Part shown: one piece after another, positions 4,376 to 34,410 of the stretch
How the letters are laid out: every line of letters begins with the position of its first letter
How positions within the stretch are numbered: the stretch's first letter is position 1
Source: a candidate division FCPU426 bacterium
Lineage (GTDB): Bacteria; Oederibacteriota; PGYV01; Palsa-1178
Length of the DNA stretch: 64,000 nucleotides
Assembly: GCA_003159495.1 (NCBI GenBank)
Contig: PLPI01000055.1
Span: forward strand, 3,275 to 67,274
Reading direction: 5' to 3'
The notes under the pieces: model-generated
Database searches by the model: none
Seen by the model: the letters and a program-made list of their open reading frames with translations, nothing else
Told to the model about the DNA's origin: nothing
Translations under genes and position numbers: made by a program

Positions 4376-4576
4376 CTTACACCCCCGTTTAATATTAAAA
4401 ATCATTTCCGTAAATACGGAAATATAAAGTCCGTTCTTTTTAGAGTTTTTGTTTAGGCAGCCGAATCATCAAGGAGAGCCAATTATAATTATTGCTTTAA
4501 AAAACATATACATCCAAAGTAAATAAAGGTTACCACTATTATATACAACCGTCAAGGGTAAAGCGTTTGACCCCTG

Positions 4577-6642: not shown

Positions 6643-6659
6643 CGGCATGGTATGTGCTT
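6643..6659 (+). promoter_or_regulatory. Candidate sigma-54 (-24/-12) promoter for the flgB operon
   Basis: Sequence CGGCAT-ggtat-GTGCTT with exact GG-N10-GC spacing, 39 nt upstream of the first ORF. It shares the motif with the sites at 25051 and 34394. Confidence 0.35.
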
Positions 6660-9759: not shown

Positions 9760-10761
9760 ATGGCCGCAACAATTGAAAAAGGAAAGGATTTCGCGAAGGT
9801 GGCGAAACTCATAGTTGCGCTCGGCTCCGAGTTTTCGAAGGATATATTAAAATATCTTAACGAGAACGAGGTTAACCGTGTAATAAAGGAAGTCATGGAT
9901 CTCGGTGAAATTTCAATGGAAGAAAGGCTCGCGATCATACGCGATTTTACACTTTCCATGGTGGAGGCGGATGAAAAAAGCTCCGGCGGGTATACTGCGG
10001 CAAAGGAAATACTTTCGAACCTTTATGACACAAAAAAAGCCGATGAGATGATATCTTTTTTAAGGCCGGACGAAGGGCCGTTCAAGTTTATTGAGGAACT
10101 TGAAACCGAGAAAGTATTCGAAGCCATAAAGAACGAACCGGCGCAGATAATCGCGGTTATTGTTACATTCACCTCGGCTGAAAAAGGGGCGGATATACTG
10201 AGTTTTATGACAAAGGAAGTCAGGGCGGATATCGCAAGGCGCATAGGGGACATTGAAAAGGCCGAGCCGGACGCCGAGATGATAAATGAAATAATATCCA
10301 TACTTAAGTCCAAGCTGGTCCAGAAAAAGGAAATCAAGATAAACGGCCTGGAAAAACTCATAAAAATACTGCACGAAGTCGACAAAAAACAGCTCAAGGA
10401 AATACTGGACATACTGGAAAAAGACTCGCCCGAAATGGCCACAATAATCAAAAAGGAACTTTTCAGGTTCGAGGACCTGAAGGCCATCGAGGACAGGTAC
10501 ATGCAGAGGATACTGCGCGAGGTGGAGGGAAAAGAGCTTGTCCTTGCGTTAAAGGGGGTTTCCGAGGAATTAAAGACAAAAATATTCACAAATATGTCGG
10601 AGCGCGGGGCCGAGATGATAAAAGACGACATGGAGGCTACCGGACCGTTAAAAAGGCAGATAGTCGAGGAATCCCAGCAGAAGGTCCTTAACGTTGTTAG
10701 AAAGCTTGAGGCCAGCGGTGAAATAGTGCTGGAAGGGGGCAATCCAGATGTTGTTGTATAG
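9760..10761 (+). CDS. fliG: Flagellar motor switch protein FliG
   Basis: 333 aa; a typical FliG N-terminus and C-terminal torque-helix region. Confidence 0.9.
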   Translation: MAATIEKGKDFAKVAKLIVALGSEFSKDILKYLNENEVNRVIKEVMDLGEISMEERLAIIRDFTLSMVEADEKSSGGYTAAKEILSNLYDTKKADEMISFLRPDEGPFKFIEELETEKVFEAIKNEPAQIIAVIVTFTSAEKGADILSFMTKEVRADIARRIGDIEKAEPDAEMINEIISILKSKLVQKKEIKINGLEKLIKILHEVDKKQLKEILDILEKDSPEMATIIKKELFRFEDLKAIEDRYMQRILREVEGKELVLALKGVSEELKTKIFTNMSERGAEMIKDDMEATGPLKRQIVEESQQKVLNVVRKLEASGEIVLEGGNPDVVV

Positions 10762-19631: not shown

Positions 19632-20020
19632 GAAAAACAGCGGCGGCATTGATGCTTGTCCTTTTGCTTTCGGGGTTCTGCCTTGGAGGCACAACACCCA
19701 CGGCAAAAGACTCCGGTTATGAATACAAAGGGACCGGATACCTGACCGTCGTTTACGCGTTAAAGGTAATTGTAGCGATTTCTATTTTAAGCGGAATCGC
19801 ATACGGCGCTTTAAAATTAATGAAAAAATACAACCTGAATCCCGCAGCGTTCAACGACGAGATAAAACTCAAGGCGGTCAAAACCATACTGGGCGACAAG
19901 AAGGCCGCGATAATTGAGGCACGGGGCAGGGAATACCTCGTGGCCATATCGAGGGATAATATTACCCTCATTGCCGCGCTTGAAGGGGCCCCAAAAACAA
20001 AAAAGGGCGCGTCGAAATGA
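19628..20020 (+). CDS. fliO: Flagellar biosynthesis protein FliO/FliZ-like
   Basis: 130-aa bitopic membrane protein between fliN and fliP. Confidence 0.6.
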   Translation: MRKTAAALMLVLLLSGFCLGGTTPTAKDSGYEYKGTGYLTVVYALKVIVAISILSGIAYGALKLMKKYNLNPAAFNDEIKLKAVKTILGDKKAAIIEARGREYLVAISRDNITLIAALEGAPKTKKGASK

Positions 20021-20814
20021 GACTCAGAATATTGCTCGCGGCCGTGGCAATACTGGCGCTTTTCACACCTGCGTTCGCCTCCGATTCCATAAACCTGAAT
20101 ATAGGCGTCGGGTCGTCCAACGGCGGCGGCATCGTCAATTCGCAGGGCAGTAACGTCTCAATAAACCTGGCTGAGCCGTCCAATGAAAAGGAATTATCAG
20201 GGGCGGTAAAGGCTTTAATAGTCCTGACAGTGCTGTCGCTTGCTCCGGCCATATTTGTGCTGTGCACATCATTTATCAGGATAATAATCGTGCTGTCGAT
20301 ATTAAGGCAGGGCATAGGCCTGCAGACGCTTCCGCCAAACCAGGTGCTGGTTGGTTTCGCCGTCTTTCTTACCATATTTAACATGCTGCCGGTAATTCAG
20401 CAGATAAATGTGAACGCGGTAAAACCATATTACGCCAAACAGATTTCATGGCAGGAGGCGCTCGACAGCGGGACACAGCCGCTCAAAAAATTCATGCTGG
20501 CGCAGACAAGGGACGAAGATCTGTCGGTATTTTTATCCCTGGTAAAGGAAAAACCGAAGTCGAGGAAGGACCTTTCAATATTTGTGGTCATTCCGGCATT
20601 CGTGCTGAGCGAACTTAAAGTCGGGTTCGAAATAGGCTTCATATTATACATACCGTTCCTTGTGGTCGACATGATAGTTGCGTCCATTTTAATGTCCATG
20701 GGCATGATGATGCTTCCGCCTATCATGATATCTCTGCCTTTCAAGATACTGCTTTTTGTGCTAATTGACGGCTGGCGGCTCGTTACAGAGGCGCTTCTTA
20801 AAAGTTTCCATTGA
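20017..20814 (+). CDS. fliP: Flagellar export apparatus protein FliP
   Basis: Signal peptide followed by conserved FliP TM segments (LSLAPAIFVLCTSFIRIIIVLSILRQ). Confidence 0.9.
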   Translation: MRLRILLAAVAILALFTPAFASDSINLNIGVGSSNGGGIVNSQGSNVSINLAEPSNEKELSGAVKALIVLTVLSLAPAIFVLCTSFIRIIIVLSILRQGIGLQTLPPNQVLVGFAVFLTIFNMLPVIQQINVNAVKPYYAKQISWQEALDSGTQPLKKFMLAQTRDEDLSVFLSLVKEKPKSRKDLSIFVVIPAFVLSELKVGFEIGFILYIPFLVVDMIVASILMSMGMMMLPPIMISLPFKILLFVLIDGWRLVTEALLKSFH

Positions 20815-20880
20815 CGGCCCGGCGGCATCATACACGGGGATATTCCGGCTTAAAAAAATGAGAAAGGCGGGCAAAGTCGC

Positions 20881-22668
20881 ATGTTAAATAAAAAATATTA
20901 CAAAGGCAGCGACCTTTATTCGGACGGAGACGTTGAAAATGATATATTGAAGATTGTAAGGGAAGGTAAGGATCCTGAAAAGGCAATAGCCGAAGACAGC
21001 CGCTGGCCCATACTTTATCATCTTACTTCCACCAGGGAAAATTTGCTTGAATGGATACCTTTTGAAAAGAACGCAAGCCTGCTCGAAATAGGCGCGGGTT
21101 GCGGCGCGCTTACCGGACTGCTGTGCGAGAAACTCGGCAAAGTGACGGCTGTCGAGCTTTCGGCCAGAAGGGCGGAAATAACAAATGAAAGGCTTAAAGA
21201 TAAAAAAAACCTTGAAATATACGCGGGAAACCTGAGCGACATTGAATTCGGGGAAAAGTTCGATTATATAACTCTCATAGGCGTGCTTGAATATGCCGGC
21301 AAGTACAAGAACTCGAAAAACCCGTATATGGATTTTCTTAAGGACGTCAAAAAACTTCTTAAGGATGATGGAACGCTTATTATTGCCATTGAAAATAAAT
21401 TCGGGATGAAGTATTTTTCCGGCGCGCGTGAGGACCACACCGGAGCGGCTTTTGACGGCATACAGGGTTATACGCGCAGTGACGTGAGGACTTTCGGGAA
21501 AAACGAGCTGATCAGCCTTCTTAAAAGTTCGGGTTACGGTGAAAGTCATTTTTATTACCCCATGCCGGATTACAAATTACCGGGCGTGATATTTTCGGAT
21601 TTCCGCCCGCCGAAAATCGGTGAGATAGGCAGGACGTTTTCTAATTTCGACAGGGATAAAGTGTCGGTTTTCAGCGAATGCCTCGGGTTTGAGAACGCGG
21701 TTAACAGCGGCGAATTCGGATTTTTTGCGAATTCATTTCTCGTTTTTTGCGGCAAAAAACCGGCCATTGATTTTGTCAAATACAATAACCTCAGGATGCC
21801 CGCATTCCAGGCAGCGACGGAGATCATGAGCGGCGGGGCGGCCTCGACAAAGAGAAGCTTGCGCGGGGACGGGGAAAAACACATATCGCGCATAGTACAA
21901 AATTTCTCAAAACTCGGGGAAAACCACGGTGATTTTAAAATAGCGGGATGCAGGTTTGAAGCGGGAAAAGCGGTTTTTGAGTACATAGAGGGCAGGTCGC
22001 TGGATGAACTGCTCTATGAAAACGCCGTAAAAAGGGATAAAAACGGTTTTTTCGGACTGCTTGCGGAGTTTAAAAAGAATTTTGATTCGCTGGACAGGTC
22101 GAAAATAAGCAATTTTAAGGCTGACGTCGGTTTTACGGAAATATTCGGGGATACGGCGATAGATTTTGACTTCGATTCCTTCAAGGTATCGGACATAGAC
22201 ATTATATTTGACAATATTATCGTAAAAGACGGCGCACAGGTGTTGATTGACTATGAGTGGGTTTTTGAAACCGTACTGCCGGTAAATTATATTTTGTTCA
22301 GGTCAATATTCACCTTCTGGAACAAATACGTGGAGCATCTGGACGGTTTTGTCACGCCCGAGGAAATATTTAATTTTTTTGGAATAGCCTTTAAAGAGAT
22401 ACCGTTTTACGGGCAGATGGAAAGAAAATTTCAGGCATTTGTCCATGATCAGCCAAGGCTCTCAAATCTGGCGGGTTTTCAGAAAAGAAGGGACGAAATA
22501 AAAATTTACGACATGGTAAAACATTCGGGCTACCTGGAAACGCGCGTGAAGGCGCTTAATATGGAAATGGAAAAGACAAGAAAGCTGATATGTGAAAAAG
22601 AGGATATTATAGAAAAACTCAGGGTAGAGCTTGACGGAATGAAAAAACAGCCGGAAAAGACCGCTTAG
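20881..22668 (+). CDS. Class I SAM-dependent methyltransferase fused to a ~350-aa C-terminal domain of unknown function (possibly kinase-like)
   Basis: Motif I LEIGAGCGALTGLL and post-I VAVELS in residues ~60-220. C-terminal region has a DIIFDN(x16)IDYEW arrangement and a terminal coiled coil. Confidence 0.7.
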   Translation: MLNKKYYKGSDLYSDGDVENDILKIVREGKDPEKAIAEDSRWPILYHLTSTRENLLEWIPFEKNASLLEIGAGCGALTGLLCEKLGKVTAVELSARRAEITNERLKDKKNLEIYAGNLSDIEFGEKFDYITLIGVLEYAGKYKNSKNPYMDFLKDVKKLLKDDGTLIIAIENKFGMKYFSGAREDHTGAAFDGIQGYTRSDVRTFGKNELISLLKSSGYGESHFYYPMPDYKLPGVIFSDFRPPKIGEIGRTFSNFDRDKVSVFSECLGFENAVNSGEFGFFANSFLVFCGKKPAIDFVKYNNLRMPAFQAATEIMSGGAASTKRSLRGDGEKHISRIVQNFSKLGENHGDFKIAGCRFEAGKAVFEYIEGRSLDELLYENAVKRDKNGFFGLLAEFKKNFDSLDRSKISNFKADVGFTEIFGDTAIDFDFDSFKVSDIDIIFDNIIVKDGAQVLIDYEWVFETVLPVNYILFRSIFTFWNKYVEHLDGFVTPEEIFNFFGIAFKEIPFYGQMERKFQAFVHDQPRLSNLAGFQKRRDEIKIYDMVKHSGYLETRVKALNMEMEKTRKLICEKEDIIEKLRVELDGMKKQPEKTA

Positions 22669-22849
22669 ATGAAAAAATCTTGGCGAACATTGATAACCAG
22701 GTCGATATGATGAGATACTGTCAAGAGTAGTGTGTAAATTGATTTAGCCATAATAAGACAACTCGCCGGTTTCTTTCGAATTTAATTCAACAATCTGCAA
22801 AAAAATATGATGATACCGGATTGATTATAATATACAACAATGATAAAAT

Positions 22850-22934
22850 GGCACTGTCGAAAAACCGGTTGCACGGTTTATCCTGGATATATGCGCGGGA
22901 TCAAGCAACATTGGCGGGGTTTTCCGAAGGTACC
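22850..22934. repeat. Hairpin-forming inverted-repeat element, copy B (85-bp core)
   Basis: GGCACTGTCGAAAAACCGGTTGCACGGTTTATCCTGGATATATG...GGATCAAGCAACATTGGCGGGGTTTTCCGAAGGTACC aligns with the two ends of copy A at ~85% identity. Confidence 0.6.
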
Positions 22935-23158
22935 ATAAGGGAGCGATTGTTTGTAAAATGTGCAAAAGATAATGGCGGAAAGATGTTTTAGTCTGGCGGG
23001 CGGGTCTGCTGGATGACCGATATTTAGAAAAAAATGTAAGGTGTTCGTCTGCGTTGTGGATCTTGGCGTGCATGACCCGGTATTCAAAAAGCCATAACAG
23101 CCAAACTTATGGTATTATAAGCCGTAGTTTTTCGCAATATCAAAAGGTGGCTCTAAAA

Positions 23159-24901
23159 ATGACGATAAGTATTTTTGCGGCAATATCATTTTTCACGGCA
23201 ATAGCAGCTTTTCTAACCGGTATTTATATTTACCGGCAGGATCCCAGAAACCCGATGAACCAGACTTTTATGTACGGTTCGGCCGTTGTTGCATGGTGGG
23301 CCCTGTGCGAATTTCTTTACCGCACGGCGCCGGATGCTGTTTACGCCGCATTCTGGATAAAAATGTGTTTCGTATGGCCGTTCGGGCTCGCGTTCTTCCT
23401 TGACGCGATCATATATTTCCTGGATACGGATGCAAAAATAAAAATGATGCCGCGCATGCTTGCTTTATACGCGCCCGCGGTTGTTATTGCCTTAATACAC
23501 CTTTTTTTTACGGGGCTGTACTTCGGGCCGCCGGTAAAAATGTGGTGGGGATATACGGTATCAAAAGGGCCGCTTCTGGGTGTTATAAATTTTTATTCCA
23601 TCTTACTTTTTGCCGTTTCAGCGGCCTGGCTGCTCGTGTTTGCGTTAAAAACAAAAGACGCTGTAAAAAAGAGGCATGCTTTTGTAATAGCGGCCGGGCT
23701 TTTAACGGCCACCCTTATGGCATTTTCTGTCGGGATACAGGAGATTTTCTTTAACCGGCAGACTCCGGAACTCTCGACGGCGGCGATACTCGCGGGAATA
23801 ATTATAATCGTATTTGGCTCGGTTAAGCACGGGGTTTTCTCGGTAAATGTTAAGAATTCAGCCGGGCACATATTAAACGTAATGAAAGAGGGGTTTGCAC
23901 TTACGACCCCGGATATGCGCATCAAAACTGTAAATGAATTTTTCTGCCTGATGACGGGCTACCTTATGGAAGAAGTGGAAGGCATGAATCTGGGGTCATT
24001 TGCTGGGCTTAATTCCGATGGAAGAGGAGAATTTGAAACCCTGCTGAAAAGAAAAGATGCGGGCCTCATGCCGGTCGGCGCATCGCACACTGTTGTGAGG
24101 GATAATCGCGGCAATATTGCGGGGCATATTTTTGTCTTCGCGGATATTACGGATAAGAAGAAAAAACTTGAAATAGAGGCCGAATACAGGAAATTGATCC
24201 AGGGTGAGGCATCTAAAAATGAGATTATCAACGTTATTGGCCATGAGATGAAAACTCCGCTTACATCAATAAAGGGATTTTCATCGCTTCTGATAAGCGG
24301 GGCCGCGGGACGGTTGAATGAAAACCAGAGGGAATACACGGAGGCAATCAAGGCTAATGCGGACAGGCTGGTCGAAATGACCTCGGATTTTATAGATATA
24401 ATCAGGATATCGTCCGGCAGGATGCCTCTCGTGAAAGAAAAATTCGACATGTCGGCGGTGGTGAATAATGTTTCGGACAAATTTAATTACATTCTTGCGG
24501 GTTCCGGGATAACCGTTACCGCCGGAAAAAAAGCCGTTTGTATGGTATTCGGGGATGAAAAGAGGCTTGAACAGGCCGTTTCAAATATGGTGCTTAACGC
24601 GGTAAAATTTTCGCAAGACGGTGACTGCGTGAAAATTTATTGTTCCGCCGCCGTGGGGACCGCAGCCGCGCAGGTATGGGTGGAGGATACTGGCAGGAAA
24701 TTGTCTCCGCAAGAGGTCAATGAAATATTCGCCGGACTGCTTATAATAAAAAATAATCGTTCCACAAAAAAGAACCACGGGACACCCTTTGCGATGACCA
24801 TTTCCAGGGCCATTGCCGAGTCACACGGAGGCAACCTGGTTTACAGAGATAACGGAACAAAAAAGGGCAACACGTTCGTAATGGAAATACCGCTGAGTTA
24901 A
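23159..24901 (+). CDS. Polytopic membrane sensor histidine kinase (multi-TM, PAS, HisKA, HATPase_c with degenerate G1/G2 boxes)
   Basis: Six to seven predicted TM helices, H-box IGHEMKTPL and N-box NAVKFS. G1 is DTGRK (not DxGxG) and G2 is GTPFAM (not GxGLGL). RBS aaggtgg before ATG 23159; the ORF is open from 23054. Confidence 0.7.
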   Translation: MTISIFAAISFFTAIAAFLTGIYIYRQDPRNPMNQTFMYGSAVVAWWALCEFLYRTAPDAVYAAFWIKMCFVWPFGLAFFLDAIIYFLDTDAKIKMMPRMLALYAPAVVIALIHLFFTGLYFGPPVKMWWGYTVSKGPLLGVINFYSILLFAVSAAWLLVFALKTKDAVKKRHAFVIAAGLLTATLMAFSVGIQEIFFNRQTPELSTAAILAGIIIIVFGSVKHGVFSVNVKNSAGHILNVMKEGFALTTPDMRIKTVNEFFCLMTGYLMEEVEGMNLGSFAGLNSDGRGEFETLLKRKDAGLMPVGASHTVVRDNRGNIAGHIFVFADITDKKKKLEIEAEYRKLIQGEASKNEIINVIGHEMKTPLTSIKGFSSLLISGAAGRLNENQREYTEAIKANADRLVEMTSDFIDIIRISSGRMPLVKEKFDMSAVVNNVSDKFNYILAGSGITVTAGKKAVCMVFGDEKRLEQAVSNMVLNAVKFSQDGDCVKIYCSAAVGTAAAQVWVEDTGRKLSPQEVNEIFAGLLIIKNNRSTKKNHGTPFAMTISRAIAESHGGNLVYRDNGTKKGNTFVMEIPLS

Positions 24902-25050
24902 CTTTTATCAAGAAAACGCGGTTTTACGCCTATCAACAGTAATTTCTGCAAGTGAAATCAAAAAAACAACACATGGAATAATTTCCACAAAATACCATGG
25001 AAAACAATCCATACTTTTCAGTAAAGGCCTTGTTTTTATAGGTTTTTATC

Positions 25051-25067
25051 CGGCATACTTCGTGCAA
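25051..25067 (+). promoter_or_regulatory. Candidate sigma-54 promoter for fliQ-fliR-flhB-flhA
   Basis: Sequence CGGCAT-acttc-GTGCAA with GG-N10-GC spacing, 50 nt upstream of fliQ. Confidence 0.35.
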
Positions 25068-25114
25068 TATGGTATACCTGCCATAATGTATATATTGATT
25101 TTCCGGAGGGAACC

Positions 25115-25384
25115 ATGGGAACTGGTGATGTGATGATGATACTGAAAAATGCGGCGGCGGTTACATTTATTACGGTCGCGCCGATAATGGTTATCGGCCT
25201 GGTGCTTGGGCTTTCAATTTCCATTTTTCAGGCGGTGACGTCAATACAGGAAATGACTCTTACGTATGTCCCGAAAATACTCATCTCGCTTTTGTGCATA
25301 ATACTTTTCGGCCCCTGGATGATGCAGATGGTGATTTCATTTTCCACAAATCTGATAAGGTCGATTCCGGACCTTGTAAAGTGA
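25115..25384 (+). CDS. fliQ: Flagellar export apparatus protein FliQ
   Basis: 89 aa with two TM segments; a typical FliQ sequence. Confidence 0.9.
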   Translation: MGTGDVMMILKNAAAVTFITVAPIMVIGLVLGLSISIFQAVTSIQEMTLTYVPKILISLLCIILFGPWMMQMVISFSTNLIRSIPDLVK

Positions 25385-25391
25385 GGTACAC

Positions 25392-26168
25392 GTGGAAGCA
25401 TTAATACTGGTTCTAAAGTTTTACGTCCTGATGGCGGTCAGGATAAGCGCCATAATAATACTTTTTCCGGGATTTGGTTCCACGGGTTTCCCTGCAATCG
25501 CAAAGGTATTCATAATAGGTGCGCTGTCGCTTGTGGTCATGATGGGCACACCGGCAGTCGCCGCCCCGGTGCTTGCGGATAACATAATATTTTCCATATA
25601 TATAGTCAAGGAGGCTTTCATAGGATTTTTTATAGGATTTCTTTCACAGATACCGTTCATGGCGGTCAGGGCCGCCGGCGATATGATAAGTTTTAACACC
25701 ATGTTCTCGATGGCCAATGTTATAGACCCGACAATGGAACAGCAGGTGACCGTATGGGGGGAATTTTACAACATTATGGCAACCCTTGTATTTTTTGTCA
25801 TGAACGGCCACCTTATAATACTAAAAGCGATAACCTTTTCTTTTGCCAAAATATCAGTACTCGCGCCTGTAATGCTTGATCAGGACGTCCTGCGGCATGT
25901 GACAGGTGTGGCAAGTTCCATATTTATAGCGGGAGTTTTGATAGCGGCTCCGGTTGCCGTCACCCTTTTTATGTCAAATGTAAGCATGGGCGTGGTTTCG
26001 AGGACAATGCCCCAGTTTAATGTATTTGTGGTGGGTATGCCGCTGCAGATTATGCTCGCTTTCATACTTATAATAGTTACCGTGCCGATGGATACGGAGC
26101 TGGTTGGCAACGTGATTGGAAGGATGTTCGGGGAAATCAACGGCTTAATAGCCGCTTTAGCGAGGTAA
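25392..26168 (+). CDS. fliR: Flagellar export apparatus protein FliR
   Basis: 258-aa polytopic protein following fliQ. Confidence 0.85.
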   Translation: MEALILVLKFYVLMAVRISAIIILFPGFGSTGFPAIAKVFIIGALSLVVMMGTPAVAAPVLADNIIFSIYIVKEAFIGFFIGFLSQIPFMAVRAAGDMISFNTMFSMANVIDPTMEQQVTVWGEFYNIMATLVFFVMNGHLIILKAITFSFAKISVLAPVMLDQDVLRHVTGVASSIFIAGVLIAAPVAVTLFMSNVSMGVVSRTMPQFNVFVVGMPLQIMLAFILIIVTVPMDTELVGNVIGRMFGEINGLIAALAR

Positions 26169-26170
26169 AG

Positions 26171-27238
26171 ATGGCAGATTCGAGCAAGACGGAAAAACCG
26201 ACGCCAAAGAAGATAAGAGAGTCCAGGGAAAAGGGGCAGTCCGCCAAAAGCAGCGAGGTTTCGTCCGTAATACAGATAATAGGATTTCTGTTAGTAGTGT
26301 TCATGTCTTCCCGGACAATGTTGTCAGTAATGATTAAGAGTTTTTATTCCTCCATAGAAGAGGCCGGGAGCGGAAAGGTCCTTGATTTTGACAGGGCGCA
26401 TGCTCTGCTGACCGGGGGAGCGATGGCCGTGTTTTCCGCAATTACTCCGGCATTAATAACTCTTCTTGCGCTCGCGCTTGTTTCGGGTGTGGCCCAGTCG
26501 GGATTTTCATTCGCGGAAAAGGCTCTCTCCCCGAATTTTGGGAAGATAAACCCGCTGAACGGATTTTCACGCCTGTTTTCATCCCGTTCATGGGTTGAAC
26601 TTCTGAAATCCATATTCAAGATCGGTGTTGTTTTTGCAATATTATACAACGTATTCATGACGGAAAAGGACCGCATTATGATGCTGTCCGGTACGGATGT
26701 TTACACGGTGCTGAATTATTCGGCCCATCTTTTTACGGAAATAATAAAAAAAATAGCCGTTTTTCTTATAGCGCTTGCAATTGTGGATTATATATGGCAG
26801 AAACATGATTTTATGTCGAACCTTAAAATGAGCAAACAGGAAGTCAAGGATGAAATGAAACAGACCGAAGGCGACTTGAGAACCAAGGCAATGATAAGAA
26901 ACTGGCACAAACGCAAGATCAAGCACGCGATGATGGAGTCGGTAAAAAAGGCTACTTTTGTCACGGTAAACCCTACGCATTATGCGGTTGCGGTAAAATA
27001 TGAACGCGGCATGAGGGGGCCAAAACTGCTTGCCAAGGGGGCGGACCTGATGGCCAAAAGAATAAGGGAACTTGCCAAAGAATACAAGGTGCCAATAGTC
27101 AAAAACGCGGAACTTACCCGTTCGATTTATTTTTCCACAGAGGTGGGCAGATTCATCCCGCCAAAACTATTTAAGGCGCTTGCAAAAGTGCTTGTGTTTA
27201 TATACAGGATGGAAAGGGAGAAAAAAAATGGAAGATAA
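26171..27238 (+). CDS. flhB: Flagellar export apparatus protein FlhB
   Basis: Four N-terminal TM segments; NPTH autocleavage motif present (VTVNPTHYAV). Confidence 0.9.
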   Translation: MADSSKTEKPTPKKIRESREKGQSAKSSEVSSVIQIIGFLLVVFMSSRTMLSVMIKSFYSSIEEAGSGKVLDFDRAHALLTGGAMAVFSAITPALITLLALALVSGVAQSGFSFAEKALSPNFGKINPLNGFSRLFSSRSWVELLKSIFKIGVVFAILYNVFMTEKDRIMMLSGTDVYTVLNYSAHLFTEIIKKIAVFLIALAIVDYIWQKHDFMSNLKMSKQEVKDEMKQTEGDLRTKAMIRNWHKRKIKHAMMESVKKATFVTVNPTHYAVAVKYERGMRGPKLLAKGADLMAKRIRELAKEYKVPIVKNAELTRSIYFSTEVGRFIPPKLFKALAKVLVFIYRMEREKKNGR

Positions 27239-29315
27239 AAAACCGGTAAAACAGGGCGGAGCCACGGTGGCCGTGATGATAGTCAGCCTGATAATGATAA
27301 TGATCATACCCCTGCCCCCTTCGCTTATAAGCTTTTTGATTGTTATAAACTTTACACTTTCACTGCTTATACTCATGATAACCCTGTATATAGGCAATCC
27401 CCTTGAATTCTCGGTTTTTCCCAGCGTGCTGCTGGTAATGACCCTGCTTGACCTGGCGCTTAATATATCCATAACCAGGATGATACTTTTGAGCGGCAAC
27501 GCCGGCTCGGTCGTTTCGGCTTTTGGCGAGTTTGTCGTCGGCGGGAATGTGGTGGTGGGGCTGGTTGTATTTATAATAATAACAATCGTCCAGTTCGTGG
27601 TCATAACAAAAGGCGCCGAGAGGATAGCCGAGGTGGCGGCCAGATTTACCCTGGACGCCATGCCGGGAAAACAGATGTCCATCGACGCTGACTTGTCCGC
27701 GGGGCTCATAACGAACGAGGAGGCAAGGCGCCGCAGGAGGGAAGTTGAGGACGAGGCCGACTTTTACGGGGCAATGGATGGAGCCTCAAAATTTGTCAAA
27801 GGGAACGTCATTGCCGCAATAATAATAATATTTATAAACATTCTTGGCGGCATGGTTATGGGATATTTAAGGGGCGGGATGTCCCTGCTTGAAATAACAA
27901 AAATATACACAATCCTGACCATAGGCGAGGGGCTCGTGGCCCAGATACCGGCACTGGTGGTATCCATGGCGATGGGCGTGATCGTTACCCGCGCGGCGTC
28001 AAAATCAGACCTGGGGTCTGATTTTACCGCGCAGATATCAATGCAGCCAAAGGCGATAAAAATAGTAGCCGGATTCCTGTATGTGTTCGCCGCGGCCGGC
28101 CTTTTTACAAAATTACCGGTGTTCCCGTTCCTTTTAATGGCCATTCTGATGCATATAGTGTCCTCAAGGTTGAAAACGCAGCCGGAAACCTCAAAAGGAA
28201 GGGATGCCAGGGATGATAAAAAAAAGGACGGAGTCCCCCCGCTGTACAATATTATAAAAGTTTACCCGATAGAGCTTAACATAGGTTACGGGCTTTTGTC
28301 CCTGATAGACGAGAACAAAAAAGGAAATCTTCTGGACCGGCTTAAGCTCGTGCGCGAGAATGTTTCAAAAGAGCTCGGGTTCCTTCTGCCGCTGATAAGG
28401 GTTAAGGACAACAGCGAACTTACCACGAACCAGTACGCAATCAAAATAAAGGGCAATGAGGTGGCACAGGGGGAAATACTCATCGGCCATTATCTTGCAA
28501 TGACTTCGAACAACAAGGAGACAAAAGTAAAGATAAACGGCCTCCCGACGCAGGAACCGACATTCGGCCTGCCGGCAATATGGATAATTGAAAAAGAGAG
28601 GTTAAAGGCCGAAACCGCCGGGTATACGGTGGTTGATTCCGTGTCGGTTCTGGCCACACATCTTACGGAAGTCATAAAGACATACGCCCACGAAGTGTTC
28701 ACAAGAAAAGAACTCACGCAGATGATAGATATCATAAAAGCGGACAACCCGTCGCTTGTCGAGGATCTTATCCCGAATACGCTCTCCGCGGGTGATGTCG
28801 AAGCCGTGATAAAAAATGTCCTGAAGGAGAAGATTCCGGTGCGCGATATAGAGACCATACTTGAGGCGCTTGCCAACAACGGCAAGAAGATAAAGGATAC
28901 CGGGGTCCTGACGGAAATCATCAGGGAGGCTATATCCCGCTCGATATGCAGCCAGTTCAACAACGGAAAAAACCATCTTACCGTCGTTGCGATGGATCCA
29001 AACCTTGAAAAGTTAATAACGGAAAATGTCAGGCAGGTGGACAATGACGTGGTATATTCAATCGAACCGTCGCTTATGCAGAAAATAGTTAAATCCATAG
29101 GCTCTGCGGTGGAAAAACTCCTCGCCGTGAGCCCCATGCCGCTCGTGGTGTGTTCCCCGAATGTCAGGATGCATTTAAAAAAGCTCACCGAAAGGATAAT
29201 CCCGAACCTGAACATAATTTCCTACAATGAGATCGACCCCCTTTATAACGTCGAATCCGTTGCGATAATCGGGCTGCCCGAGGGGGCCGTGTCAGACAAG
29301 AATGTTATGGATTAA
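27228..29315 (+). CDS. flhA: Flagellar export apparatus protein FlhA
   Basis: ~695 aa with an N-terminal TM domain and a large cytoplasmic domain. Start chosen at MEDKK with a good RBS; the ORF is open from 27180. Confidence 0.9.
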   Translation: MEDKKPVKQGGATVAVMIVSLIMIMIIPLPPSLISFLIVINFTLSLLILMITLYIGNPLEFSVFPSVLLVMTLLDLALNISITRMILLSGNAGSVVSAFGEFVVGGNVVVGLVVFIIITIVQFVVITKGAERIAEVAARFTLDAMPGKQMSIDADLSAGLITNEEARRRRREVEDEADFYGAMDGASKFVKGNVIAAIIIIFINILGGMVMGYLRGGMSLLEITKIYTILTIGEGLVAQIPALVVSMAMGVIVTRAASKSDLGSDFTAQISMQPKAIKIVAGFLYVFAAAGLFTKLPVFPFLLMAILMHIVSSRLKTQPETSKGRDARDDKKKDGVPPLYNIIKVYPIELNIGYGLLSLIDENKKGNLLDRLKLVRENVSKELGFLLPLIRVKDNSELTTNQYAIKIKGNEVAQGEILIGHYLAMTSNNKETKVKINGLPTQEPTFGLPAIWIIEKERLKAETAGYTVVDSVSVLATHLTEVIKTYAHEVFTRKELTQMIDIIKADNPSLVEDLIPNTLSAGDVEAVIKNVLKEKIPVRDIETILEALANNGKKIKDTGVLTEIIREAISRSICSQFNNGKNHLTVVAMDPNLEKLITENVRQVDNDVVYSIEPSLMQKIVKSIGSAVEKLLAVSPMPLVVCSPNVRMHLKKLTERIIPNLNIISYNEIDPLYNVESVAIIGLPEGAVSDKNVMD

Positions 29316-29383
29316 TGGGGAGAAAATGATTATCATTAATGCGCCGGTTGTTGGTGAAACAGAAGAAAAACCGAGGAGGAATA

Positions 29384-30796
29384 ATGGACGTAAAAGCGTA
29401 TAAGATCCTGATAATAGACGATGACCCGGAGATAGTCTGGTACATCAGCAGCCTGATGAAAAAATTCGGGTATGAATTTGAAAGCTCTCCGAACGGCGAG
29501 GACGGGCTGGCAAAAATAGATAAAACATCATTTGATCTTGTCATACTTGATATCACCATGCCCGGGTTGTCGGGCGTCGAGGTCATGAAGCGCATGAACG
29601 AGCGGGGGTTTAAGTCGCCGGTAATAATCCTTTCAGCATATGAAAATGTCAATTTTGCGGTCGAGACGACAAAGCTGGGGGCCTATGATTACCTTGTAAA
29701 GCCGGTTGATGAGGAAAAATTAAGGGTGACGGTCCAGAATGCCCTGAAAACAAGGGAACTGGAAACCGAGGTCAAAATACTGCGCAATAAGATAAAGGCC
29801 GACGACCCTGACGGGGAAATAATAACCGGCCATCCGATTTTTATAAAAACAATAGAGACTGCAAAAAAAATATCGGGCTACGAGGTTTCGGTGCTGATCC
29901 TTGGAGAATCGGGGACGGGCAAGGAACTAATAGCAAGGACGATACACCGCAACAGCCAGAGAAAAGACGGCGCCTTTGTTTCCATAGACTGCGCCACGCT
30001 GCCTGACAACCTGGTGGAATCGGAACTCTTCGGACATGAAAAAGGGTCCTTCACCGGGGCCACCGAGGCGAAAACAGGAAGGTTTGAACTGGCCAACGGA
30101 GGATCTCTTTTCCTCGATGAGATAGGGAACCTTTCCCTGAATGTGCAGAAAAAACTTTTAAGGGTGATCCAGGAAAGGAAAATAGTGAGGATAGGCGGCA
30201 AAAAAACCATCGATCTTGATATCCGCATTATAACCGCCACTAATGTGGACCTGGCTGAAGCCGTTAAAAAAGGGGAATTCAGGGATGATCTGTTTCACAG
30301 GATAAACGAGTATTATCTTGAACTGCCGCCGCTAAGGATGAGGGGGGACGACATTCTGCTTTTAGCCGGAAGGTTCATACTGAAATACAACTTAAAATTC
30401 GGCAAAAATGTCAAAGACATTGATGACGAGGTAAAACAAATATTTACGGACTATTCGTGGCCCGGCAATGTAAGGGAGCTTGAAAACACGATAAAGCACG
30501 CTATTTTAATGGCTGATGCTGTTATCACAAAGGCAAACCTCCCCAAAAGCCTTACTGACAGGGTTATGATGGGAGAGGCCGCGGATTATTCCGGGAATCC
30601 GGAGGGCGCGGATGCAGGGACCGACGGAGAAATAATGTCTTTGAAAGACGCCTGCGGCAGGGCCAGGGAACACATAGAAAGGGAAATGATAATGAAGGCC
30701 CTTAAAAAGTTCAAGTGGAACAAAACGAAGGTGGCCGAGGCGCTTAAGGTGGATTACAAGACACTTTACAATAAAATGAAAGAATACGGGCTTTAA
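29384..30796 (+). CDS. Sigma-54-dependent response regulator (REC, AAA+ sigma-54 activator, Fis-type HTH)
   Basis: REC acidic pocket IIDDDPE...LDITMP. Walker A GESGTGKE and a GSFTGA (GAFTGA-type) loop. C-terminal HTH WNKTKVAEALKVDYKTLYNKM. RBS gaggagg. Confidence 0.85.
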   Translation: MDVKAYKILIIDDDPEIVWYISSLMKKFGYEFESSPNGEDGLAKIDKTSFDLVILDITMPGLSGVEVMKRMNERGFKSPVIILSAYENVNFAVETTKLGAYDYLVKPVDEEKLRVTVQNALKTRELETEVKILRNKIKADDPDGEIITGHPIFIKTIETAKKISGYEVSVLILGESGTGKELIARTIHRNSQRKDGAFVSIDCATLPDNLVESELFGHEKGSFTGATEAKTGRFELANGGSLFLDEIGNLSLNVQKKLLRVIQERKIVRIGGKKTIDLDIRIITATNVDLAEAVKKGEFRDDLFHRINEYYLELPPLRMRGDDILLLAGRFILKYNLKFGKNVKDIDDEVKQIFTDYSWPGNVRELENTIKHAILMADAVITKANLPKSLTDRVMMGEAADYSGNPEGADAGTDGEIMSLKDACGRAREHIEREMIMKALKKFKWNKTKVAEALKVDYKTLYNKMKEYGL

Positions 30797-30809
30797 GGAG
30801 GCACAGGAA

Positions 30810-31004
30810 ATGGCATTTATAACATTTTTCGCGCCGCCGGCGGCGTTTTTAGCGTGCGTCATCCTTGGAATACTGTTCCATAAATCGTGGGGAGGGGTGC
30901 TTGCAGGATCGGTAGTATTTTATGCCCTGACTTTTATACTGATGGCTGTGATAAATAAAATAACGGCTGACAGGATGCCTGTAAACAGCGAGGTGGAAAA
31001 ATGA
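30810..31004 (+). CDS. Small two-TM membrane protein of unknown function
   Basis: 64 aa, strong RBS aaggagg, 4-bp overlap with fliA. Confidence 0.4.
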   Translation: MAFITFFAPPAAFLACVILGILFHKSWGGVLAGSVVFYALTFILMAVINKITADRMPVNSEVEK

Positions 31005-31738
31005 ACGACGATGAAAGGATAATGTGGGAAAGGTTCAAACAAACGAAAAGCGCCGCGGCCAGGAACGAAATAGCCAAAAAATATATAAATCTGGTGCGGT
31101 TTGTGGTTGAAAAGGTCTATTTTGCATCCTCGCTGGCCAGCAAAGACGACCTTTTTAACATCGGCGCCATGGGGCTGCTGGAAGCTGTGGAGAAATACGA
31201 CACGGGACGGGATATAAAATTCGTAACATACGCCTATTTCAGGATATACGGCAGTATAATGGACTATTTAAGAAGCGCGGATTGGGCTCCCAGGTCCGTC
31301 AAGGAAAAATCATCAAAACTTGAAAAAGCCTACAGGGCATTAATGGAACGCGGCATTTCAAACCCCACGGACGAGCAGGTCGCCGGGGAGATGAAAATGG
31401 ATATGAACTCATATTACAGGCTTATAGACGGCCTGCATGTCAACAAGGTTTATTCGATAGACGAATTTTTTTCCGCTGACGGCGCGGGCTGCCCGGTATG
31501 TGCCGATGAAAACTCCGGAAACACCGAGCGCAGGGAACTGCTGGCGCGCATAATAGACACGGCCCTTGACAGCAGGGAACAATCGGTGCTGGCGATGTAT
31601 TATTATGAAGGTTTCACCCTCAAGGAAATATCAAAGTCAATGGACCTTACTGAGGCGAGAATCTCCCAGATACACGGGCAGGCCATCTCCAAGATAAAGG
31701 CGCAACTATCCATTGAAAAAGTGCTGAATATATTTTAG
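31001..31738 (+). CDS. fliA: Flagellar sigma factor FliA (sigma-28)
   Basis: Sigma-70 regions 2 and 4: YINLVRFVV..., DLFNIGAMGLLEAVEKYD, LKEISKSMDLTEARISQI. Confidence 0.8.
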   Translation: MNDDERIMWERFKQTKSAAARNEIAKKYINLVRFVVEKVYFASSLASKDDLFNIGAMGLLEAVEKYDTGRDIKFVTYAYFRIYGSIMDYLRSADWAPRSVKEKSSKLEKAYRALMERGISNPTDEQVAGEMKMDMNSYYRLIDGLHVNKVYSIDEFFSADGAGCPVCADENSGNTERRELLARIIDTALDSREQSVLAMYYYEGFTLKEISKSMDLTEARISQIHGQAISKIKAQLSIEKVLNIF

Positions 31739-31815
31739 AATTAGGCAAGTACGGCAGCGTGCCTGACAGGGGGTTTAAAAACGGGGCGGCCGAAAACAGG
31801 CGGGAAAAGGAAAAT

Positions 31816-34254
31816 ATGCAAAAAAAAATTCTTATAGTCGACGATGAACCCGATATTGTAAAAATAATCAAGATAATACTTGAGATAGAGCCGGGACAGT
31901 ATGAAGTGCATACCTCCAGCGACGGCAGGGACGCCCTGAAAAAGATATCCGAGTTCAGGCCGGATCTTATTCTCCTTGATGAAATGCTGCCTCTTTTAAA
32001 AGGCAATGAAGTGGCGAAAATAATCAAAAACGACCCCGAACTCAGAAAAATACCCGTCATAATGGTAACCGCGCGGCACCTGCAAAAGGACAAGGTGGAC
32101 AGCCTGGAAAACGCGATGGTGGACGACTATATAACAAAGCCTTTTGAGCCGGAGGAACTGCGCGCCAGGATAAAGGCCATGCTCAGGATTAAAACACTGA
32201 CCGACGAGCTTGAGGCCGCAAACCGGTCCATGCAGGAACTGTATTCAAGGGCGGCCGACACGGCCGCGATGCGCAAGAGAATGCTTGACGAGGTGCTCAG
32301 GGGCATGCCGTTTGCCGTAATGCTGACCGACGGGGAGATGCAGATACTTGAGGCGAACTCAAACCTGTATGAGATGCTTTCAATCGACCAGGGGCGCATA
32401 ATAGGCGCTGATGCGTCGGCCCTGTTTGGCACCAGGATAAAACGTGATGTAACCCCGACCATGGTGCAGTTTTTTGCCCCCAAGAAAGGAAAATTATACC
32501 TGGAAATCAGCTGCGTGGAAATGGATGACGGGCTGCGCTGTATACTTGTCGTAAATGACAGGACGCGCGAACGCCTTATGAACAACATACAGGTGCTTTT
32601 CAGGCACACTCTCAATGAATCAACGGGAAATACAAACACCGAATTTTTCAAAAAACTGCTCGGCGAGGTGAAAAGTTATTTTTATGCCGAAGCCGGCGCG
32701 GTTTATATCTTTGACGGGGACAACATTTACAAGGGCGCAATGGCGGAACAGGGCGGGGCGGAGAAATTTTCGGACGCGGAATTGAAGGTTTACATGCCGC
32801 AGGTAAAAAAAGCGATGCATCAGCGGCCCGCTTATATATCCGGGGCCGATATAAAAAAGTACATGGAGGACCCTTCCGGCCATGTGACGAATATTGTGGC
32901 CATACCCTTAAAGGGCATGGAGATAAAACTCGGCATCCTTATGCTTTACAATTCACCCGGCATAGAAACATCATTTGAATATAAGATAGAAATTATAGAC
33001 TTTATCGTAAGTATTGTGAGCGTGCTTTATAAGAACATGATGCTTGTCGGCAAACTCAACAAGGAAAATATACTTGTCAGGAGCCTTATAAATATTTCGC
33101 AGATAATAAATTCGACCATGGAATACAACAAGCTCATCGGAATATTCGTTGAGATAGTTTCCCAGTTTATAGGATCGGAAACAGTGGGGCTGTTTTTGTT
33201 CAACAAAAAAACACACAACCTTGAGCACATACATTCCAGGGGTTATTCCAGGGAGCGGATGGAACTCTATTCGAAGTCGCTTATCAGCAGGGATGAAATA
33301 GAGAATTACGGCAGGGATGAAGCCGCGGCCCTTGTGAACAATGAAAAATTTGCGCCGTTTAATACCCCGGGGCTGACAAAGGTTTTCCCGCTGAAATTAA
33401 GGTATAAGCTCATAGGCTATGTCAGCGTTGAAAAAGCCGAAACAGACCCGATGCATATGGAAATGCTTGCCCTTTTGATGGAGCATGTCGCCAAATCAAT
33501 TGAGAACTCATACCTTTTCGACCAGATATTAAAGCAGAACGAACAGCTTATTAATACTACGGAAATGCTGCGCAAGACGGAACAGAGGCTGATTATAAGC
33601 GAACAGCTTGCCGGTATGGGGAAGTTTGCCGCGGCAGTTGCCCACGAGATCAGGAATCCGCTCACCATTATGCTCGGCGCGGTCCAGAATTCAAGGAACG
33701 CAACTGTGGAGGAAAAAGATTCCATACTGGAGCATCTGGAGGGGAAAATAATCGATATTGACCACATTTTGAAACAGATGATGGAATACGCCAAACAGAT
33801 GAAGATAACCATAGAGGAATTTGACCCGGTAGCTTCGATAGGAGAAACCCTTAATTTTATAGGACACAAGGCCAAAGTTGAGAATGTCAGGATTAAACAG
33901 GACCTGAAAGTGGCGTCAAAGGTGAAGGCCGACAGGATGTGGTTTGAAAGGGTGCTTTTAAACCTTTATATGAACGCAATGGATGAAATGAAAGGCGGCG
34001 GGGAACTTACCGTGTCCGCCTCCGAGGACGCCGAGAACATTATTTTAAATATCGGAGATACGGGCAGCGGAATACCCGAAGAGATAAAAAACAAGATATT
34101 CGAGCCGTTCAACACATCCAAAAAAACCGGAACCGGGCTCGGGTTGTACAATGTGAAAAAGGCAATAGAACTGCAGGGCGGAAAAATAGACTTTATTACT
34201 TCAAAGCAGGGCACTGTTTTTACCATACACCTGGCAAAGTGTGTACCCGAATAA
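31816..34254 (+). CDS. Hybrid sensor kinase: N-terminal REC, PAS/GAF, HisKA, canonical HATPase_c
   Basis: REC ILIVDDEPDIV...LILLDEMLP; H-box AHEIRNPL; G1 DTGSGI; G2 GTGLGL. The ORF is open from 31759. Confidence 0.75.
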   Translation: MQKKILIVDDEPDIVKIIKIILEIEPGQYEVHTSSDGRDALKKISEFRPDLILLDEMLPLLKGNEVAKIIKNDPELRKIPVIMVTARHLQKDKVDSLENAMVDDYITKPFEPEELRARIKAMLRIKTLTDELEAANRSMQELYSRAADTAAMRKRMLDEVLRGMPFAVMLTDGEMQILEANSNLYEMLSIDQGRIIGADASALFGTRIKRDVTPTMVQFFAPKKGKLYLEISCVEMDDGLRCILVVNDRTRERLMNNIQVLFRHTLNESTGNTNTEFFKKLLGEVKSYFYAEAGAVYIFDGDNIYKGAMAEQGGAEKFSDAELKVYMPQVKKAMHQRPAYISGADIKKYMEDPSGHVTNIVAIPLKGMEIKLGILMLYNSPGIETSFEYKIEIIDFIVSIVSVLYKNMMLVGKLNKENILVRSLINISQIINSTMEYNKLIGIFVEIVSQFIGSETVGLFLFNKKTHNLEHIHSRGYSRERMELYSKSLISRDEIENYGRDEAAALVNNEKFAPFNTPGLTKVFPLKLRYKLIGYVSVEKAETDPMHMEMLALLMEHVAKSIENSYLFDQILKQNEQLINTTEMLRKTEQRLIISEQLAGMGKFAAAVAHEIRNPLTIMLGAVQNSRNATVEEKDSILEHLEGKIIDIDHILKQMMEYAKQMKITIEEFDPVASIGETLNFIGHKAKVENVRIKQDLKVASKVKADRMWFERVLLNLYMNAMDEMKGGGELTVSASEDAENIILNIGDTGSGIPEEIKNKIFEPFNTSKKTGTGLGLYNVKKAIELQGGKIDFITSKQGTVFTIHLAKCVPE

Positions 34255-34393: not shown

Positions 34394-34410
34394 CGGCACG
34401 TTTTGTGCTA
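34394..34410 (+). promoter_or_regulatory. Candidate sigma-54 promoter for flgF-flgG-flgA-flgH-flgI
   Basis: Sequence CGGCAC-gtttt-GTGCTA with GG-N10-GC spacing, 43 nt upstream of flgF; the best of the three matches to TGGCAC-N5-TTGCW. Confidence 0.4.

Follow-up and report, generated by a model that had tools for sequence, protein, structure and literature searches.

How did fliP and fliQ, two genes of the flagellar export apparatus, come to be separated by 4.3 kb of other DNA in an uncultured bacterium, and do the genes between them serve the flagellum? The locus lies on a 64,000-nucleotide stretch of a candidate division FCPU426 genome (assembly GCA_003159495.1, contig PLPI01000055.1), the whole of which is referred to here as the window. 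Positions 20815–25114 of the window are exactly the gap between the stop codon of fliP (20814) and the start of fliQ (25115). On the upstream side is fliP itself (20017–20814, + strand; Pfam FliP, 8e-79; 89% identity to its counterpart in the related contigs L082 and L168), the last flagellar gene of its transcription unit, and on the downstream side are the export-gate genes fliQ (25115–25384, + strand; Pfam Bac_export_3, 8e-24), fliR, flhB and flhA, which together span 25115–29315 (+ strand; Pfam). Filling the gap are, in order, a 66-bp spacer, an open reading frame (ORF) of 595 residues, a 490-bp non-coding spacer, a kinase gene and a 213-bp spacer. An initial annotation made from the sequence alone had placed a methyltransferase fusion gene and a polytopic sensor histidine kinase in a gap of this size; both genes are present and the coordinates are exact by Pfam assignment of the flanking genes. 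On the strength of what is shown, namely the genes present, the sequence in which they arrived, the promoter and enhancer architecture conserved in front of fliQ and the changing contents of the site, we consider the interval probably to be an assemblage of accessory genes that gathered at an operon boundary specific to this lineage.

The joins are not peculiar to one assembly. A separate 3.2-kb ENA contig carries fliP–methyltransferase–kinase joins, with both outer genes truncated, that are identical to those of the window, and the order fliP–methyltransferase–kinase–fliQ is found in all 24 of the longest contigs read (ENA, JGI and Logan), which come from differing sample accessions. At four distinct contig places the three spacers could be set side by side; all three are 100% identical in three of the places, and the fourth differs by a single base, in the spacer upstream of fliQ. 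A kinase at least 90% identical to that of the window is indexed in 85 blocks of the searched collection. Were one of the three joins (fliP/methyltransferase, methyltransferase/kinase or kinase/fliQ) a product of faulty assembly or binning, a caveat raised in the initial annotation, the same error would have to have arisen in at least 24 independently assembled contigs, and we give such a chimera practically no credence.

Adjacency of fliP and fliQ is common, as the initial annotation had it, although its 'almost universally' overstates the case. Our sample comprised 161 FliP loci, drawn from the genomes of GTDB species and from JGI metagenomes; 143 of them are informative and lie outside the clade described below. 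fliQ is directly downstream of fliP in 126 of these (88%); in the other 17, which include loci of Alphaproteobacteria, Sulfurospirillum and Ghiorsea, the two genes are dispersed rather than adjacent. None of the 143 has the collinear layout of fliP, cargo and fliQ, and the only exceptions to emerge from the FliP scans are a contig near-identical to the window (L081) and its close relative L082 (FliP 89%). The best GTDB matches to the window FliP reach only 58–59% identity. On a metagenome contig, L098 (1824–3484), tblastn suggests that the gate genes run in the order fliP, fliR-like, fliQ, a rearrangement that would be unusual.

The age of each gene at the junction can be read from an uncultured clade defined by FlhA, in which identity to the window runs through 100, 91, 84, 82, 80, 78, 74, 72 and 64% before dropping to 51% in matches outside the clade, which are from Negativicutes and Chloroflexota. 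In the window the methyltransferase gene is followed by the kinase gene. In L171 (kinase 81%, FliQ 100% at the amino-acid level) a 346-bp spacer leads directly to the kinase and there is no methyltransferase. L082 and L168 have the kinase only (64%; L169 carries an identical kinase protein), and L166 has the kinase (40%; identical protein in L167) followed by an SDR gene. No kinase is present in L178 (FlhA 80%), which has a 242-residue methyltransferase instead, or in L179 (FlhA 78%), which has LOG-like, TspO and OYE genes; in L180 (FlhA 72%), the deepest member of the clade, nothing has been inserted, and fliP and fliQ are adjacent across a 14-nucleotide spacer. Genes unrelated to one another have thus been gained, lost and replaced at the junction.

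The neighbour-joining tree built from a concatenation of seven proteins (2,642 columns, 200 bootstraps) has the form ((window,L168),(L166,L178)),L179,L180, with every split at 100%. Mapped on this tree, the kinase was gained once, at the base of ((window,L168),(L166,L178)), and lost or replaced in L178. The 595-residue methyltransferase, found among the sampled lineages only in the species of the window and absent from L171, L168 and L166, was gained on the terminal branch of the window alone; the alternative would need three independent losses. The 4.3-kb interval is thus the product of at least two events of very different ages, and not of the single insertion that had been proposed. Nor do its two genes form one sensory and modification module, because the kinase is present in four lineages and the methyltransferase in the species of the window alone, the nearest relative, L171, having the first without the second. 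In the comparison of synteny that the initial annotation called for, the kinase is conserved at the junction in three related lineages, and the pair of genes is not an ancestral arrangement.

The limits of the younger insertion can be placed approximately. Both the first ~20 nucleotides past the fliP stop codon and the ~100 nucleotides before the kinase start align with the fliP–kinase spacers of L171 and L082, and the DNA between them does not; the young, species-specific block therefore spans about 20838–23060 (+ strand) and consists of the methyltransferase gene, ~43 bp upstream of it and ~390 bp of non-coding DNA downstream. Relics of cargo genes were sought in the spacers of the window, L171, L166 and L180, and none were found. 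In L180 a 2.1-kb spacer (3962–6080), with a guanine–cytosine (GC) content of 25.6% against 40.8% in its flanks, lies between the fliO-side gene and fliP; it holds only one ORF, of 57 residues, together with two ATGGAA-N4-TTCCA palindromes at 5716 and 5958 and a sigma-54-like site at 6025, and no relic of a cargo gene was detected in it.

Common to the lineages with an interrupted junction is a control region in front of fliQ. Located 50 nucleotides upstream of the fliQ ATG is a predicted sigma-54-type promoter (25051–25066, + strand; −24 GG/−12 GC, cGGCATacttcgTGCA), in which the 12-nucleotide distance from the G of GG to the G of GC is the correct one. Ahead of it are two enhancer-like palindromes of the form ATGGAA-N4-TTCCAY (24973–24988 and 24997–25012, + strand), whose starts are 24 nucleotides apart. 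The pair aligns with the same start spacing in the window, L171, L168/L082 and L166, with palindrome 2 located 55–56 nucleotides before the GG in each; both palindromes are visible by direct reading in L178, and divergent versions are present in L179. Across the window the motif is enriched, with 11 matches against 4.7 expected. Orthologous sigma-54-type sites precede fliQ in L171, L168/L082, L166, L178 and L179, the −24/−12 element reading cGGCATacttcgTGCA in the window and tGGCACgcatagTGCT in L166 and L178. A GGAGG Shine–Dalgarno sequence upstream of fliQ is likewise conserved, and the rest of the spacer has diverged. The initial annotation had assigned fliQ a sigma-54-like promoter of its own, and both the spacing and the conservation in relatives agree with that prediction. 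The promoter block travels with fliQ, because in L166 the SDR gene sits upstream of the block. L178 has a strong terminator hairpin ahead of the palindromes, and in L180, where fliP and fliQ are adjacent, a sigma-54-type site and two palindromes are found upstream of fliP instead.

Sites of the same kind are distributed over the window. The pattern CGGCAY-N5-GTGC occurs four times against 0.18 expected, and none of 100 shuffled sequences reaches four; all four occurrences are intergenic, on the + strand and 39–50 nucleotides upstream of a + strand start. As the pattern was derived post hoc from two of its own sites, this statistic is indicative only, and conservation is the stronger argument. 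Besides the occurrence before fliQ (25051), a sigma-54-type site (6643–6657, + strand) precedes the flgN-like gene at 6696, which opens a tight run of genes (fliF, fliG, fliHI and onwards) extending to fliP. A second predicted promoter (34394–34408, + strand) precedes the rod genes (flgF/G-like, from 34451) and has orthologs in L168 (21152), L178 (17342) and L180 (16065). A further site (48257, + strand) precedes genes for TPR and LRR proteins. A scan of the window for TGGCAC-N5-TTGCA with three mismatches allowed was uninformative, giving 127 hits against 166 expected; it is the stricter pattern of the clade, with its conservation, that supports the promoters. In the stretch around the site at 48257 (48172–48271), upstream of the TPR (48261–49613) and LRR (49610–51604) genes, ATGGAAAAGATTCCAT forms a perfect palindrome and CGGCATGGATTGTGC a sigma-54-like site. 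The ATG called at 48261 overlaps the promoter, so the true TPR start is probably further downstream, and the two genes may share the regulon of fliQ.

The 490-bp spacer between the two cargo genes (22669–23158, + strand; GC 0.40) has no ORF relics, Rfam match or + strand terminator-like site. Within it is an element of ~45–70 nucleotides (22824–22893, + strand) with a second copy at 1405–1473 (blastn, 84% over 44 nucleotides), upstream of a radical-SAM/UbiA gene pair. This two-copy element, which may be a shared promoter or operator, is probably what the initial annotation called a hairpin repeat element, a description that is not supported: no repeat family was found in the spacer, repeat and hairpin searches of the interval gave short matches at chance level only, and Rfam returned nothing for the whole window at gathering thresholds or for 22600–25200 at E ≤ 1. 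A putative sigma-70-like −35/−10 pair from a consensus scan (TTGATT-17-TAAAAT, 22821–22849) overlaps the 5′ end of the element. The single short hairpin in the spacer folds no better than shuffled sequence (z = 0.05). Folding of a candidate terminator after the kinase gene is likewise no better than that of shuffles.

The older cargo gene encodes a sensor histidine kinase of 580 residues (23159–24901, + strand), composed of seven transmembrane (TM) helices, a PAS domain, HisKA with the H-box HEMKTPL, and HATPase_c (Pfam architecture HisKA_7TM-PAS_9-HisKA-HATPase_c). Its true start is the ATG at 23159 rather than the TTG at 23054 of a 615-residue ORF, because the N-terminal MTISIF is conserved in relatives and the TTG extension is not. 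The HisKA_7TM match (PF16927; residues 46–264 of the 615-residue ORF) scores 46.0 bits against a cut-off of 28.6. By hydropathy the seven hydrophobic helices are joined by loops of at most ~15 residues; there is therefore no periplasmic domain, which suggests sensing within the membrane. Following the PAS domain is a complete H-box, HEMKTPLTSIKGF, and the orthologs share the residues of the N and G1 boxes. A search of 5.8 billion clustered proteins returned the kinase itself, then matches at 81, 64, 64 and 40% identity, then 24%; the orthologous clusters number only four, and all of them are at the fliP/fliQ junction. Against L171 the ratio of nonsynonymous to synonymous substitution rates (dN/dS) is 0.16, with similar values across the 7TM, PAS and kinase parts, and the kinase is a maintained gene under purifying selection. 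The best matches of the kinase core are WalK, PnpS, PhoR and VanS (NCBIfam) and SrrB, DivL and HK853 (PDB). Kinases of the WalK/PhoR class usually pair with OmpR/PhoB-type receivers. The nearest relative from outside the junction, P0126 (24% identity), is encoded away from any flagellar cluster, with CheW and methyl-accepting chemotaxis protein genes nearby.

Directly after flhA is an NtrC-family sigma-54 activator response regulator (29339–30796, + strand; REC-AAA+-HTH_8), in which Pfam identifies Response_reg, Sigma54_activat, AAA_lid_14 and HTH_8 and which has the Walker A motif GESGTGKE, a GSFTGA loop and an acceptor Asp in LVILDITMPG. A full-length activator in this position is found in this clade only, among the 161 sampled FliP loci. 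The protein is AtoC/NtrC/ZraR-like; its best NCBIfam match is AtoC (432 against a cut-off of 714), and it is below the curated cut-offs for FlgR (NF049963; 315 against 750 bits) and FlbD (NF050807; 328 against 750). Beyond fliA is a REC-(sensor)-HisKA-HATPase hybrid kinase (31759–34254, + strand; Pfam), with an H-box, HEIRNPL, of the NtrB/AtoS/ZraS type, best matches to AtoS and ZraS (NCBIfam) and to ThkA and ZraS (PDB), and an N-terminal REC domain that is PhoP/VicR/YycF/PhoB-like. The hybrid is conserved in all six lineages, and the resemblance of its kinase core makes it the likely cognate kinase of the activator. The order flhA, activator, small ORF, fliA and REC-kinase hybrid is kept in every lineage assessed; the 2.7-kb contig of L171 ends inside fliR and was excluded from this downstream comparison. 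The likeness to FlgSR-type checkpoints drawn in the initial annotation is thus reasonable in that the cluster has a sigma-54 two-component circuit, but the kinase that matches the NtrC-type activator is the downstream hybrid and not the 7TM kinase of the interval.

Several details of this region stand apart. The GTG start called for the hybrid (31759–31815) adds 19 residues absent from all relatives, in which the conserved start is an ATG followed by the sequence MQKKILIVDD. Missing from their usual place after flhA (29339–31738) are flhF and flhG, with the activator, the small ORF and fliA there instead. The small ORF (30810–31004) is hydrophobic and conserved at 54–64 residues and, read from its sequence, resembles two TM helices. 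An unrelated marine metagenome-assembled genome, L059 (FliP 51%), has a 600-residue REC-PAS-HisKA-HATPase kinase (2139–3941) between fliQ (1845–2111) and fliR (3938–4723), so that here too, independently, an export-gate operon contains a sensor kinase.

The younger cargo gene (20881–22668, + strand) encodes a trifunctional-looking protein of 595 residues, in which a class I S-adenosylmethionine (SAM) methyltransferase domain (residues ~56–240) is followed by a kinase-like domain resembling APH/choline kinases (residues ~290–530) and a predicted long C-terminal helix (residues 549–589). The methyltransferase domain match itself covers residues 56–170, with ~400 residues beyond. An AlphaFold model of the protein is confident (predicted local distance difference test score, pLDDT, 90.9). 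Searches of the family yield more than 2,300 matches, and full-length relatives reach 48% identity. Invariant in this family are D440-x4-N445 and D457-x-E459 (within IDYEW), which we take to be the catalytic loop and the metal-binding Asp of APH/choline-kinase motifs. For the C-terminal half, PDB sequence and profile searches gave no match, and NCBIfam offers no equivalog-level name for this protein or for the 7TM kinase, the activator or the hybrid.

The homologs of this protein sit in glycan loci: beside NeuB, CMP-sugar synthetase, PIG-L and formyltransferase genes in L162; beside GT2/GT4 glycosyltransferases and UDP-GlcNAc 2-epimerase in L164; and beside MBOAT and AlgX-like O-acetylation genes in L165. 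For this reason our best guess, by analogy with WbdD, is that the enzyme caps or modifies a cell-surface glycan, and it is most likely a recently arrived glycan enzyme. The initial annotation had tied it to modification of flagellin, which is conceivable but unsupported: nothing links the two, the homologs are in general glycan loci, the window has no glycosyltransferase or flagellin-glycosylation genes, and no ABC transporter is encoded near the methyltransferase. The flagellin encoded in the window is a minimal protein of 273 residues.

The window as a whole is a large + strand flagellar supercluster (Pfam), which begins with a flgN-like gene (6696) and continues through fliF, fliG, a fused fliH-fliI, fliJ, fliK, flgE, motA and motB to fliL, fliM, fliN, a fliO-like gene and fliP. 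The interval then precedes fliQ, fliR, flhB and flhA, after which come the activator, the small ORF (64 residues), fliA and the hybrid, followed by rod, ring, hook-associated, flagellin and fliD genes. Both FlgH and FlgI are encoded, and the uncultured host is a diderm-type flagellate. The FliH–FliI fusion is a 639-residue ORF (10748–12667, + strand) in which FliH, ATP-synt_ab and T3SS_ATPase_C domains are joined; the clade as a whole has kept it, and it is seen also in L166 (1–1618) and L168 (1–1697). The FlgM-like ORF (38420–39022) is unusually long, at 200 residues, with the FlgM domain at its C terminus only. Two genes of the FlgN family are present in the cluster (6696–7151 and 39041–39562).

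How this junction probably arose can be outlined as follows. The usual fliLMNOPQR-flhBA unit would have been cut before fliQ by a sigma-54-dependent promoter with two activator-type palindromes, so that fliQ, fliR, flhB and flhA, together with the activator downstream, would be freed from read-through from fliP. DNA inserted behind fliP would then have no polar effect, and different lineages have fixed different cargo there; because the fliQ promoter makes an operon boundary, that boundary probably explains why insertions are tolerated. The first and older event was the acquisition of an orphan 7TM-PAS kinase by the ancestor of the window, L168, L166 and L178, with loss in L178; the second, recent and species-specific, brought the gene encoding the methyltransferase, kinase-like domain and putative coiled coil, with ~390 bp of non-coding DNA. 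Transcription of the flagellar unit ending at fliP may extend at its 3′ end over both cargo genes, between which there is no terminator-like site. The 7TM kinase could then be an optional, membrane-integral input to the core flagellar circuit of the clade, by a relay that would run from the 7TM kinase to the PhoB/WalR-like REC of the hybrid, from there to the AtoS/ZraS-like kinase of the same protein, and on to the NtrC-type activator and its sigma-54 promoters. Resemblance at the level of subfamilies suggests this relay.

Several points weigh against this account. Read-through of the 490-bp spacer and dependence on sigma-54 are both read from sequence, and rpoN is not within the window. The pairing of the 7TM kinase with the REC of the hybrid is drawn from subfamily resemblance and not from specificity residues, and the G2 box of the kinase is degenerate. 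The kinase also diverges much faster than its neighbours, at 64% and 40% identity where the flagellar proteins retain 80–91% and 61–84%. In L178, L179 and L180, which have no 7TM kinase, the REC of the hybrid keeps its acceptor Asp, Thr and Lys, and another phosphodonor must therefore exist. Describing the junction as permissive is a post hoc explanation for a clade sampled in about seven lineages, and the cargo could have been selected for co-expression with flagella rather than merely tolerated.

An alternative origin, by which all 4.3 kb arrived on a single mobile element or genomic island (such as a transposon, an integron cassette or the remnant of a phage), draws on the low GC of the methyltransferase gene in its second half and of the spacer (0.39–0.40, against a window mean of 0.47) and on the second copy of the short spacer element. 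The interval has two ORFs only, however, neither of which encodes a transposase, integrase or recombinase; tRNAs and other RNA families are likewise absent, as are terminal inverted repeats. Its sole flanking direct repeat, of 14 nucleotides (22677/23060, 12 of 14 matching), was considered as a target duplication and rejected, since by our own estimate chance would give about 0.5 such repeats in the 600-bp spacer region, and a larger number across the full interval. Composition is not decisive as to foreign origin: the GC of third codon positions is 0.51 in the methyltransferase gene and 0.52 in the kinase gene, within the range of the neighbouring flagellar genes. A block of methyltransferase, spacer and kinase with recombination sites has so far not been found at unrelated loci, and the two genes differ in age, so that delivery by one element is very unlikely. 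As to function, a fuller form of the reading in the initial annotation would make the two genes one module inside the export-gate operon, in which the 7TM kinase senses the assembly or state of the export apparatus, as a checkpoint of the FlgSR type, and the methyltransferase acts on some component of the flagellum. In keeping with this, the kinase has been kept at the junction in four lineages under purifying selection and is membrane-embedded, as FliPQR and FlhBA are; a sigma-54 activator and predicted sigma-54 promoters are in the same cluster; the kinase of L059 indicates that sensor kinases recur in gate operons; and known flagellar two-component systems are activated by formation of the flagellum's type III secretion system (fT3SS), the MS-ring and the rotor (PMC3760246, PMC7064773). 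We nevertheless find this reading improbable. The two genes are separate acquisitions, sister lineages have metabolically unrelated cargo at the same site, and activator and hybrid are both retained in the three lineages without the kinase. The core of the kinase does not belong to the NtrB/FlrB type, and the homologs of the methyltransferase are in general glycan loci rather than flagellar ones. Moreover, the known flagellar kinases FlgS, FlrB and FleS are cytoplasmic, without TM segments, and belong to unrelated groups (PMC7064773).

That both genes have nothing to do with flagella, being neutral or independently useful cargo whose kinase signals to a regulator encoded elsewhere, is a possibility to be taken seriously, if the less likely one. 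It would account for the heterogeneous contents of the site (SDR, methyltransferase, LOG, TspO and OYE), the fast evolution of the kinase, its dispensability in L178 and the position of its nearest non-junction relative outside any flagellar cluster. It sits less easily with the fixation of the kinase at the exact junction across a protein divergence of ~0.3 substitutions per site, and with the fact that, the flagellar ones apart, no cognate regulator is encoded beside the kinase in any lineage; likely co-transcription with fliP would tie expression of the kinase to flagellar assembly in any case. At the other extreme, the 7TM-PAS kinase, made together with FliP, could be a membrane-embedded sensor of the nascent export gate (FliP, FliQ, FliR, FlhB and FlhA) or of the state of the surrounding membrane, which through the hybrid and the activator would license sigma-54 transcription of fliQ–flhA and of the activator itself. 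This proposal is a doubtful one. If true, the sensor would be a feed-forward checkpoint inside the gate operon and a membrane-integral counterpart of the soluble FlgS, FlrB and FleS.

Taken as a composite of accessory genes at an operon boundary, the locus is of more general interest. An otherwise very stable junction has become a slot for gene turnover, with five contents in about seven related lineages, and the turnover can be linked to a concrete cause, a conserved internal sigma-54-type promoter with enhancer sites. The clade may be a clean natural example of how an operon that gains an internal promoter comes to have a site permissive to gene accretion. Its flagellar sigma-54 circuit also has an undescribed layout, in which the activator follows flhA, the REC-kinase hybrid follows fliA and flhFG is missing from its usual place; the optional 7TM kinase is a candidate membrane-integral input to this circuit. 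For annotation the locus is a caution: physical embedding in an export operon is not proof of flagellar function.

Each part of the locus has a known system to which it can be compared. The split or dispersed fliP and fliQ of Alphaproteobacteria, Campylobacterota and Zetaproteobacteria share with the window the non-adjacency and separate transcriptional control of the two genes, but there the two lie scattered or, at a distance of kilobases, on opposite strands, whereas the window keeps the collinear order fliP…fliQRflhBA and has opened within it a variable cargo slot with an internal promoter. The N-terminal region of the kinase matches HisKA_7TM above the Pfam cut-off and shares its short loops; this domain has no known ligand and has been noted mainly in haloarchaeal kinases (PMC5847659), and no association of HisKA_7TM kinases with flagella was found in the searched literature.

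The methyltransferase gene product recalls WbdD of Escherichia coli O9a, a bifunctional enzyme, kinase and methyltransferase, that has a coiled coil and brings O-polysaccharide chains to an end by phosphorylating and then methylating the terminal mannose, stopping growth of the O-antigen (PMC3482155). The order of parts is the same, a class I methyltransferase, a eukaryotic-like or APH-like kinase and a C-terminal helix predicted to be a coiled coil; the catalytic D-x4-N and the Mg-binding D of the kinase are invariant in the family of the window ORF, and its homologs are in surface-glycan gene clusters. No WbdD chain is among the 41 PDB phmmer hits (E ≤ 1) or among the best 60 of 85 profile hits. 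The two differ in that the predicted coiled coil of the window ORF is only ~40 residues long, much shorter than that of WbdD as described, and in that its gene stands alone between fliP and the kinase in a flagellar operon, with no glycosyltransferase or ABC transporter nearby and no ABC-transporter-dependent polysaccharide locus around it.

Closest in regulatory logic are FlgS/FlgR of Campylobacter and Helicobacter, FlrB/FlrC of Vibrio and FleS/FleR of Pseudomonas. As in those systems, an NtrC-family activator is encoded inside the flagellar cluster, predicted sigma-54-type promoters are found upstream of rod and basal-body genes, and a kinase with an NtrB-type H-box, here the REC-kinase hybrid, is nearby; a flow from early genes through a two-component system to later genes is plausible in the window. 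The differences are in the parts and their arrangement. The kinase of the interval is a 7TM, WalK/PhoR-like protein with the H-box HEMKTPL, and the likely cognate kinase of the activator has an extra N-terminal REC. The regulatory genes of the window lie after flhA, after fliA and between fliP and fliQ rather than beside a master regulator, with flhF and flhG not in their usual place. The export-gate genes fliQ–flhA, moreover, appear to be sigma-54-dependent. The embedded sigma-54 circuit of this clade, together with the turnover of genes between fliP and fliQ, is a variant of known flagellar regulation.

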